Below are positions 14,705-15,053 of a stretch of DNA of 29,317 nucleotides, in pieces (within the stretch, counting starts at the first letter, position 1; each line of letters begins with the position of its first letter). A program made the position numbers and the translations under genes. The notes below the pieces were generated by a model. It made no database searches, had not been told where the DNA came from, and saw nothing but the letters and a program-made list of their open reading frames with translations. The DNA comes from a virus (lineage: Duplodnaviria > Heunggongvirae > Uroviricota > Caudoviricetes): the IMG/VR virus record IMGVR_UViG_2872164251_000007, positions 1-29,317 of that record; one strand, given 5' to 3'.

Positions 14705-14779
14705 TGGAGCGGGCGAAGGGAATCGAACCCGCATCATCAGCTTGGAAGGCTGAGGTAATAGCCATTATACGATGCCCGC
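14705..14779 (-). tRNA. tRNA-Gly (anticodon UCC), glyT-like, with atypical 3' end (probable attL)
   Basis: Cloverleaf folded by hand; anticodon loop CUUCCAA; 3' end CCCTTCGCCCGCTCCA gives two T-stem mismatches and an A7:C66 mismatch, unlike the copy at 5794-5810. Confidence 0.7.
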
Positions 14780-14782
14780 ATA

Positions 14783-14858
14783 TGGTGCCGACTACCGGAA
14801 TCGAACTGGTGACCTACTGATTACAAGTCAGTTGCTCTGCCTGCTGAGCTAAGTCGGC
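14783..14858 (-). tRNA. tRNA-Thr (anticodon UGU), thrU-like
   Basis: 76-nt cloverleaf, anticodon loop CUUGUAA, T-loop TTCGATT, CCA encoded; differs from my recollection of E. coli thrU only in the D-loop. Confidence 0.8.
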
Positions 14859-14860
14859 GC

Positions 14861-14937
14861 TGGCCCACCACCGAGGACTCGAACCTCGCACCGTCAACTT
14901 AGAAGGTTGATGCTCTATCCGGATGAGCTAGTGGTGG
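14861..14937 (-). tRNA. tRNA-Arg (anticodon UCU), with C1-G72 acceptor pair
   Basis: 77-nt cloverleaf with fully paired acceptor stem CCACCAC/GTGGTGG, anticodon loop CUUCUAA, T-loop TTCGAGT, CCA encoded. Confidence 0.7.
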
Positions 14938-14938
14938 T

Positions 14939-15015
14939 TGGTGGCCCTTGCTGGACTTGAACCAGCGACCTGGCGATTATGAGTCGCTCGCTCTGACCAA
15001 CTGAGCTAAAGGGCC
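14939..15015 (-). tRNA. tRNA with CAU anticodon (Ile2-type, ileX/ileZ-like, or elongator Met)
   Basis: 77-nt cloverleaf, anticodon loop CUCAUAA, T-loop TTCAAGT; closely resembles E. coli ileX from memory. Confidence 0.75.
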
Positions 15016-15024
15016 GGAGGCAGA

Positions 15025-15053
15025 ATAATAACCATATGTCATCACATCTGCAA
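15025..15053 (-). promoter_or_regulatory. Candidate sigma70 promoter for the tRNA cluster
   Basis: Minus strand TTGCAG-N17-TATTAT, with the -10 element 9 nt upstream of the first tRNA. Confidence 0.45.

Follow-up and report, generated by a model that had tools for sequence, protein, structure and literature searches.

What is the set of four transfer RNA (tRNA) genes, spaced only a few nucleotides apart, that lies within a prophage sequence of Shigella, and what could it do for the genome that carries it? We addressed this question in a stretch of 29,317 nucleotides (nt) from the IMG/VR virus record IMGVR_UViG_2872164251_000007 (hereafter, the window), which is 100% identical to the chromosome of Shigella flexneri 3b SFL1520 (CP032513.1; genome described in PMC6424224). 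A first-pass annotation, made from the sequence alone, had proposed a prophage cluster of four tRNAs with anticodons CAU, UCU, UGU and UCC. ARAGORN accepted all four folds at the proposed coordinates and placed exactly four tRNA genes in the window (anticodons cat, tct, tgt and tcc), and all of them exceeded the gathering score of Rfam family RF00005 (29 bits), with E-values from 1e-13 to 9e-8 that are far beyond chance. The strand had been left unstated; all four genes are on the minus strand, the only one on which the gene order and the promoter described below make sense. The intergenic gaps are as short as had been claimed, at 1 nt (14938), 2 nt (14859-14860) and 3 nt (14780-14782), and CCA is encoded in 4 of 4 genes. 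We consider it likely that the four genes form a polycistronic operon of lambdoid-phage origin, located in the phage late-operon leader between a Q-like gene and the lysis genes, that adds copies of four minor, low-copy Escherichia coli decoders. This reading is directly supported by the genes, their homologies, their genomic context, an insertion into the last gene and codon statistics, and from these we infer promoter activity, a processing route, aminoacylation and modification, and a benefit.

The identities of the genes point to a set that would decode four codons: AUA by Ile2(k2C-AU), AGA by Arg(UCU), ACA by Thr(UGU) and GGA by Gly(UCC). The first gene, with anticodon CAU, appears to be of the Ile2 (ileX/ileZ) type and not a tRNA-Met, as it is identical at 74 of 77 positions to ileZ of Shiga toxin (Stx) phages (96%), at 69 of 77 to K-12 ileX (90%) and at 54 of 77 to metT/metU (70%). 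Its acceptor stem (GGCCCUU...AAGGGCC) contains the C4-G69 and C5-G68 pairs that are typical of Ile2 tRNA (the TilS rule), and in closely related clusters the gene is annotated as tRNA-Ile in RefSeq (matches 97.3-100% identical). A tRNA of this type would read AUA after lysidine modification of C34. The Arg gene is 83% identical to argN of Stx phages and 75% identical to host argU, and its A20, C35, U36 and G73 fit the identity rules of arginyl-tRNA synthetase. The acceptor pair C1-G72, which the first-pass annotation had singled out as unusual, is present (5'-CCACCAC / GTGGTGG-3', followed by discriminator G73); it is not peculiar to this copy, being a lineage trait common to every argN-lineage member that we collected. 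The acceptor stem of the argN family also shows a compensatory change from A3-U70 to G3-C70, and across the family 96.6% of cells in the cloverleaf are paired, with changes on both sides of 10 pairs (values reached by 0 of 500 shuffles).

The last two genes resemble those of the host. The Thr gene is identical to K-12 thrU at 74 of 76 positions (97%), with both differences in the D-loop, while the Gly gene is identical to host glyT at 72 of 75 (96%), with three consecutive differences at positions 64-66; in relatives in which the Gly gene is uninterrupted the identity to glyT is 75 of 75. The cluster thus looks like a fusion between a phage ileZ-argN-type pair and a thrU-glyT-type pair that is near-identical to host genes. 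Each module is also found alone, the Ile2-Arg type in Stx phages and the Thr-Gly pair in phi467 and SerU-LTIIb. The same genes are annotated by the NCBI pipeline in RefSeq relatives, including the Gly gene with the altered 3' end in strain EPSSH018.

To relate the four specificities to codon demand, we compared the use of ATA, AGA, ACA and GGA (in this order, per 1000 codons) between gene sets. These codons are rare in a sample of 39 K-12 core genes (2.9, 0.8, 5.2 and 7.1), in agreement with the rarity that had been claimed for them; the window's own prophage genes are enriched in them (11.4, 13.4, 12.7 and 10.8). In the intact related prophage of E. coli VL40, the values were 12.7, 9.9, 11.6 and 12.3 for early genes and 3.9, 6.6, 11.6 and 16.3 for late genes. 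The cluster products would raise the tRNA supply for codons that are 1.3 to 17 times commoner in prophage than in core genes. Very heavy demand was found in the 33 genes of the virB-ipa-mxi-spa region of the Shigella virulence plasmid pCP301 (105792-135425, our comparison locus L081; 33.7, 17.6, 22.1 and 14.5), which uses the four cognate codons at 2 to 22 times the K-12 core level. As the prophage of the window is dead, phage late genes are not the present beneficiaries and any benefit would now fall to the host; we hypothesize that the demand of the virulence plasmid is a host-level reason for retention of the cluster. The figures agree with codon compensation, the usual view of phage tRNAs. 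It has been invoked for Shigella phage SfI, in which an ACA bias was reported (PMC3636060), and has been discussed together with the placement of tRNA genes after Q in the phages of Shigella and in lambdoid phages (PMC3636060, PMC4631060). The general validity of this view is debated (PMC4631060, PMC10264068).

We then asked how the cluster might be transcribed. The first-pass annotation had given it a promoter of its own, and a promoter-like TTGCAG-N17-TATTAT does precede the first gene, with TATTAT ending 9 nt before the mature 5' end of the tRNA; a promoter scan lists the site in the register TTTGCA-18-TATTAT, with 9 of 12 matches. What supports the claim is conserved geometry: the hexamers, the 17-nt spacing and the distance of 9-10 nt to the tRNA recur in four diverged lineages whose spacer sequences differ (down to 3 of 17 identical positions in one pairwise comparison). 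The version in Stx2 phages and PPompW reads TTGCAA/TATTAT, that of EPSSH018 reads TTGATT/TATTAT, and a variant from IMG/VR reads TTGCAT/TACTAT. In its hexamers, a spacing within 16-18 nt and its conservation, the site thus resembles a sigma-70 promoter. A strong intrinsic terminator that would end the upstream ORF6N/late-leader transcript lies about 50 nt before it. The conserved geometry, taken with a terminator directly before the site, speaks for a dedicated promoter that does not depend on Q, and because fragments of insertion sequences (IS) lie between Q and the cluster in SFL1520, this local promoter is the only plausible driver there. We propose that a sigma-70-type polymerase would start transcription of the cluster at TTGCAG-17-TATTAT and that, in an intact phage, Q-modified polymerase passing the upstream terminator would transcribe it as well. 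An internal promoter-like sequence, TCGGCA-16-TATAAT (14791-14764), was dismissed, since its -10 hexamer falls within the Gly D-arm, which is identical to that of glyT.

The short gaps also bear on how the transcript could be processed. As spacers of 1-3 nt leave no endonuclease site, RNase P followed by exonucleases is the likely route of maturation, by analogy with E. coli tRNA operons, some of which are RNase P-dependent. In this scheme the precursor would be split by RNase P at each 5' end, and the short trailers would be trimmed by exonucleases to the encoded CCA.

The surroundings of the cluster identify it as prophage-borne and downstream of Q, as had been proposed. Upstream, in the order of transcription, we found nin-region genes, the Q-like gene, a promoter-like site, isrK, a C4-type RNA, IS91 and IS3 fragments, an ORF6N antirepressor gene and the terminator; downstream are holin and lysozyme remnants that are 96% identical to the start of the VL40 holin/lysozyme region, followed by IS66 and a sitD-like permease gene. 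No morphogenesis genes were found in the window, so the host prophage is defective: an IS-riddled, lambdoid remnant. The claimed position between Q and the lysis genes holds on the Q side, and on the other side the lysis genes are 9 kb away rather than adjacent. The lambdoid late-leader position, from Q to the lysis cassette, is nevertheless recognizable, with IS fragments and an 8.9-kb island intervening; with the island removed, a class II holin gene follows the cluster after about 310 bp, as in uninterrupted relatives. The coordinates of these features are collected in the table.

Table. Positions of the tRNA genes, their putative control elements, the inserted island and the flanking phage genes in the window.
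Feature	Coordinates	Strand	Evidence
Late antiterminator gene, Q-like, DUF1133/PHROG 753, 184 aa as called in source genome	19072-18398	minus	Pfam, PHROG, gene call
Intrinsic terminator AAAGAACCCGC-UUUAU-GCGGGUUUUUUU	15132-15104	minus	fold z = -4.65; conserved in VL40 and CFSAN029787
Promoter-like element: -35 TTGCAG (15053-15048), 17-nt spacer, -10 TATTAT (15030-15025)	15053-15025	minus	sequence reading and promoter scan
tRNA-Ile2 type, anticodon CAU	15015-14939	minus	ARAGORN; Rfam 70.5 bits
tRNA-Arg(UCU), argN lineage, C1-G72, A20, G73	14937-14861	minus	ARAGORN; Rfam 56.4 bits, without non-standard pair
tRNA-Thr(UGU), thrU-like	14858-14783	minus	ARAGORN; Rfam 69.8 bits
tRNA-Gly(UCC), chimeric: glyT-type body and glyU-type 3' end	14779-14705	minus	ARAGORN; Rfam 48.9 bits
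attL core TCCCTTCGCCCGCTCCA, tRNA-Gly 3' end supplied by island	14721-14705	minus	
Inserted integrative island, 8,894 bp including two IS	14704-5811	minus	Pfam, PHROGs
Tyrosine recombinase gene of island, 536 aa	14570-12960	minus	Pfam Phage_integrase 1.6e-18
Gene of island for 202-aa protein	12928-12320	minus	
IS3-family element in island	about 10046-11361		
Rha/Ant-like gene of island	10142-9348	minus	
Gene of island for 163-aa protein	9050-8559	minus	
Gene of island for 329-aa protein	8475-7486	minus	
Second IS in island	about 6000-7240		
attR core TCCCGCTGCCCGCTCCA, displaced original glyT-type 3' end of phage tRNA-Gly	5810-5794	minus	
Lysis-cassette remains: holin 5501-5322 (59 aa) and truncated lysozyme 5297-5091 (68 aa), then IS	5501-5091	minus	

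The island that separates the cluster from the lysis genes has altered the last tRNA gene. Similarity to the intact relative VL40 is lost precisely at the Gly gene's 3' end, where positions 64-66 read TTC in place of the GCT of VL40 (the canonical glyT 3' end). The island is flanked by a 17-bp att repeat that a generic repeat finder missed, matching at 14 of 17 positions here and at 17 of 17 at chromosomal glyU; by our own arithmetic, the probability of a chance 17-mer match in the window is about 3e-6. When we rebuilt the empty site in silico (15015-14722 joined to 5810-5480), the resulting 625 nt were found contiguous and 100% identical in seven complete E. coli genomes, where the site is annotated tRNA-Ile, Arg, Thr, Gly and class II holin, and at about 96% identity in a further approximately 480 genomes. 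The same island, 6.36 kb long and with identical ends, is found at chromosomal glyU (tRNA-Gly CCC) beside ETT2 (E. coli type III secretion system 2), where the repeat is a perfect TCCCTTCGCCCGCTCCA. Among 5,426 complete E. coli genomes it occupies glyU in 57 and the phage gene in one (EPSSH018). Because of the empty site, the glyU copy with identical ends and these site frequencies, the island is identified as a glyU-targeting element that used the glyT-like gene of the phage as a secondary site.

A recombinase gene beside a tRNA 3' end, a flanking repeat and an uninterrupted site in relatives are the features expected of a tRNA-targeting integrative island, and this locus has all three. The integrase gene begins 134 nt beyond the Gly gene, and the island genes are all co-oriented with the tRNAs and the phage late operon. 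No terminator was found between the Gly gene and the integrase gene, so read-through into the island is possible. The replacement end borne on attP is of the glyU type, with the crossover at or 5' of the shared TCCC, and insertion swapped the last 17 nt of the Gly gene for glyU-type sequence. The junction of a circular island would be predicted to read ...GTCGTAGGC-TCCCTTCGCCCGCTCCA-TGACAC.... Since the 5' part of glyT is now paired with the 3' end of glyU, the chimeric gene has new A7.C66 and C50.U64 mismatches in its stems. The identity elements of glycyl-tRNA synthetase (G1-C72, C2-G71, G3-C70, U73, C35 and C36) are all intact in the chimera. The two mismatches probably weaken the predicted tRNA-Gly and need not abolish it.

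Neither the 163-aa nor the 329-aa island protein matched Pfam, PHROG or PADLOC. The cargo of the element also includes a variable gene of DUF4145 type or HEPN-like, and further copies of the island are present in two comparison loci (L017, 6862-13218; L002, 5767-12105). An exact 17-nt tandem duplication (ACTGCTCAGTTTTGAGC twice, 9906-9939) lies in the 5' part of the Rha/Ant-like open reading frame (ORF), beside the IS3-family insertion. We rejected three other descriptions of the island. The att repeat, the empty site and the glyU copy speak against an integrase block carried as plain "moron" cargo; PADLOC gave no convincing hits for a known defence system; and a helper-embedded phage-inducible chromosomal island (PICI) does not fit, as the target is a tRNA gene, no PICI domains were found and the TGTATTGC motif is absent from the window. 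With tRNA-targeting islands and helper-embedded PICIs the island shares a tyrosine integrase beside a tRNA 3' end, a flanking 3'-end repeat and a replacement 3' end that is carried along. Like the helper-embedded PICIs (PMC10111431), it lies inside a lambdoid prophage, in the orientation of the late operon, whereas they target a late protein gene and it targets a phage-borne tRNA gene, in a window where no primase, AlpA or packaging genes and no doubled attP TGTATTGC motif were found. It further differs from these comparators in that its usual site is chromosomal glyU and its replacement end mismatches the phage gene, leaving the tRNA damaged and not restored. A literature search for a described glyU island returned incidental mentions only.

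The closest known system to the cluster itself is ileZ-argN-argO of Stx2 phages (933W, VT2-Sakai, Stx2a_F349). Both sets lie downstream of Q and upstream of cargo and lysis genes, and both have TTGCAx-17-TATTAT 9 nt upstream of the Ile gene. The comparison that the first-pass annotation had recommended bore out homology for the first two genes, to ileZ (96%) and to the argN lineage (83%, with C1-G72), with the same Ile-Arg spacer of 1 nt. The homology is limited to these two, and the full Stx gene set (Ile2, Arg-UCG, Arg-UCU) is not found here: the second gene has anticodon UCU where argN has UCG, a thrU/glyT-like Thr-Gly pair stands in place of argO, and no stx genes follow the cluster. The tRNA pairs that other lambdoid phages carry after Q (SfI Asn-Thr(UGU), Sf6, P21 and phiP27; phi467 and SerU-LTIIb Thr-Gly) share the location and the Thr(UGU) specificity, and differ in that the cluster has four genes, with the Ile2-Arg module added upstream and providing the promoter. 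A literature search for ileZ/argN gave nothing usable.

Of the 62 IMG/VR contigs that we retrieved by means of the Ile2 gene, 45 contain exactly these four genes, and so do about ten complete E. coli genomes. A sister cluster, found in approximately 480 E. coli genomes and three isolated phages, carries a "Lys-UUU" derivative in the Arg slot (for example L002, 12262-12338, and L008, 3501-3576), with an argN-type body, an unusual C33 and the loop CCUUUAA, annotated as tRNA-Lys. This form arose from Arg-UCU by two loop changes; either the gene is decaying, or it may encode a remoulded tRNA-Lys that possibly resists nucleases. In E. coli CFSAN029787 and its relatives, the Gly slot (L019, 1491-1562) receives a "Val-UAC" call and has a damaged 3' end without CCA; here the last gene has decayed by another route.

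Several results weigh against the cluster being an active operon that supplies decoders. In Rfam the chimeric Gly gene falls 16 bits short of glyT (48.9 versus 64.9 bits), and its minimum free energy is 5 kcal/mol weaker (-23.4 versus -28.4 kcal/mol), with a predicted T stem of 3 bp. Promoter-like sites are no more frequent than chance (6 in 7.5 kb versus 8.1 expected from shuffles), and no purine lies 6-8 nt after the -10 hexamer, which leaves the start of transcription uncertain. On the side of benefit, the late genes of VL40 are weakly enriched for ATA (3.9 versus 2.9), and a published comparison found lambdoid phages with tRNA genes to be neither better nor worse adapted in codon usage than those without (PMC4631060). 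Finally, the tRNAs may be hitch-hiking in a defective prophage in which IS fragments stand between Q and the cluster.

This last point leads to the strongest rival, that the genes are inert relics: passengers of a dead prophage whose sequences are intact, which are unexpressed or inconsequential and persist for lack of time to decay. That the prophage is IS-riddled and lacks morphogenesis genes, that one of the four genes (Gly) is already damaged, and that related loci decay in the same slots (Val-UAC without CCA in L019, odd Ser and Phe calls in the Arg slot) would all be expected of relics. Decay is not visible in the cluster itself, however, where the 294 nt from the Ile gene to the T-loop of the Gly gene are 100% identical to prophage copies in seven E. 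coli genomes and neither promoter hexamer is damaged, and the virulence plasmid of the host has an extreme demand for exactly these codons. We therefore regard the relic explanation as unlikely, if still the one to be taken most seriously beside a lambdoid tRNA operon.

A more elaborate proposal extends that operon to the island. In it, the phage tRNA-Gly is a secondary landing site, the island genes (among them those for a Rha/Ant-type antirepressor and two proteins of unknown family) are read from the tRNA promoter or by Q-modified polymerase, and excision restores a perfect glyT-type tRNA; the island would then be a new tRNA-targeted, helper-embedded element that tunes a phage tRNA, while the cluster may separately feed the virulence plasmid. 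Taken as a whole, we hold this proposal to be speculative and rather improbable.

It is also conceivable that the tRNAs serve in counter-defence, replacing host tRNAs destroyed by anticodon nucleases rather than matching codon usage. The mechanism is established in other phages, where the T5 tRNA-Lys acts against PARIS and the T5 tRNA-Tyr against the retron effector PtuAB (PMC11464382, PMC11555353, PMC10264068), and the C33 loop of the Lys-UUU derivative in approximately 480 E. coli genomes fits the logic of nuclease evasion. The cluster of the window offers little of this kind: the anticodon stem-loops of Thr and of Gly (whose match to glyT extends to position 63) are the same as in host thrU and glyT, Ile2 shares with ileX its anticodon loop and 4 of 5 stem pairs, and Arg has the anticodon loop of argU. 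Because the anticodon stem-loops match those of the host, at least three of the four tRNAs would be cleaved like the host copies, and we judge this explanation very improbable.

We give almost no credence to the idea that the locus is a displaced, chromosomal piece of the host thrU-tyrU-glyT-thrT operon: identity is 97% between the Thr gene and thrU and 96% between the Gly gene and glyT, and an IMG/VR contig (L073, 5.5 kb) runs from the cluster Gly gene straight into host glyT-thrT-tufB at 100% identity, but the window contains no tyrU, thrT or tufB, phage genes flank the cluster (Q-like gene, ORF6N antirepressor, holin), Ile and Arg are of phage lineage, the same four-gene unit occurs in sequenced phages and viral contigs, and L073, which may be an assembly join across shared glyT sequence, was not used as evidence. 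The continuity in L073 could reflect such a join or homologous recombination between the prophage gene and chromosomal glyT. Compared with thrU-tyrU-glyT-thrT-tufB, in which tyrU and 116 nt separate the Thr and Gly genes, the cluster has nearly identical Thr and Gly sequences, a different gene set and flanks, and a Thr-Gly spacer of 3 nt. The statement of the first-pass annotation that this is not the host operon is thus right in gene content and context, with the qualification that the Thr and Gly half is host-operon-like in sequence; the host operon was rejected as a description of the locus and survives only for the ancestry of the Thr-Gly module.

Other features of the prophage remnant were observed along the way. 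Following the Q-like gene on the minus strand (18178-18401) are a promoter-like TTGACT-18-TATATT (18401-18372), isrK (18365-18290), which has a terminator at 18311-18294, and an antisense RNA of C4 type (18262-18178), a layout that resembles a late promoter with a short transcript, as in the lambda 6S or Gifsy IsrK arrangement. The nin region contains a hok/sok toxin-antitoxin module (21175-21499; Rfam sok match of 118 bits and a 70-aa Hok/Gef-family ORF). Rfam matches to C4 and sok had suggested a plasmid or P1-like context, which was rejected since the region is a chromosomal lambdoid prophage of SFL1520. At the edge of the window, a sitD-like ABC-3 permease gene (1-858) is followed by a complete IS66-family element (1206-3845), and the prophage remnant abuts the sit iron/manganese transport locus.

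Lambdoid phages are well known to carry minor-codon tRNAs just before their lysis or toxin genes. The cluster is already annotated by standard pipelines, and what it adds to this known habit is the composition Ile2-Arg-Thr-Gly; apart from the nested island and the chimeric tRNA, nothing in the locus is unusual. These two show that a prophage tRNA gene can serve a chromosomal island as an attachment site, at the price of a hybrid tRNA with unpaired halves and a split late operon. The codons that the secretion genes of the Shigella virulence plasmid over-use most are those that the four specificities would serve, which suggests a testable reason why a dead prophage would keep its tRNA cluster intact.

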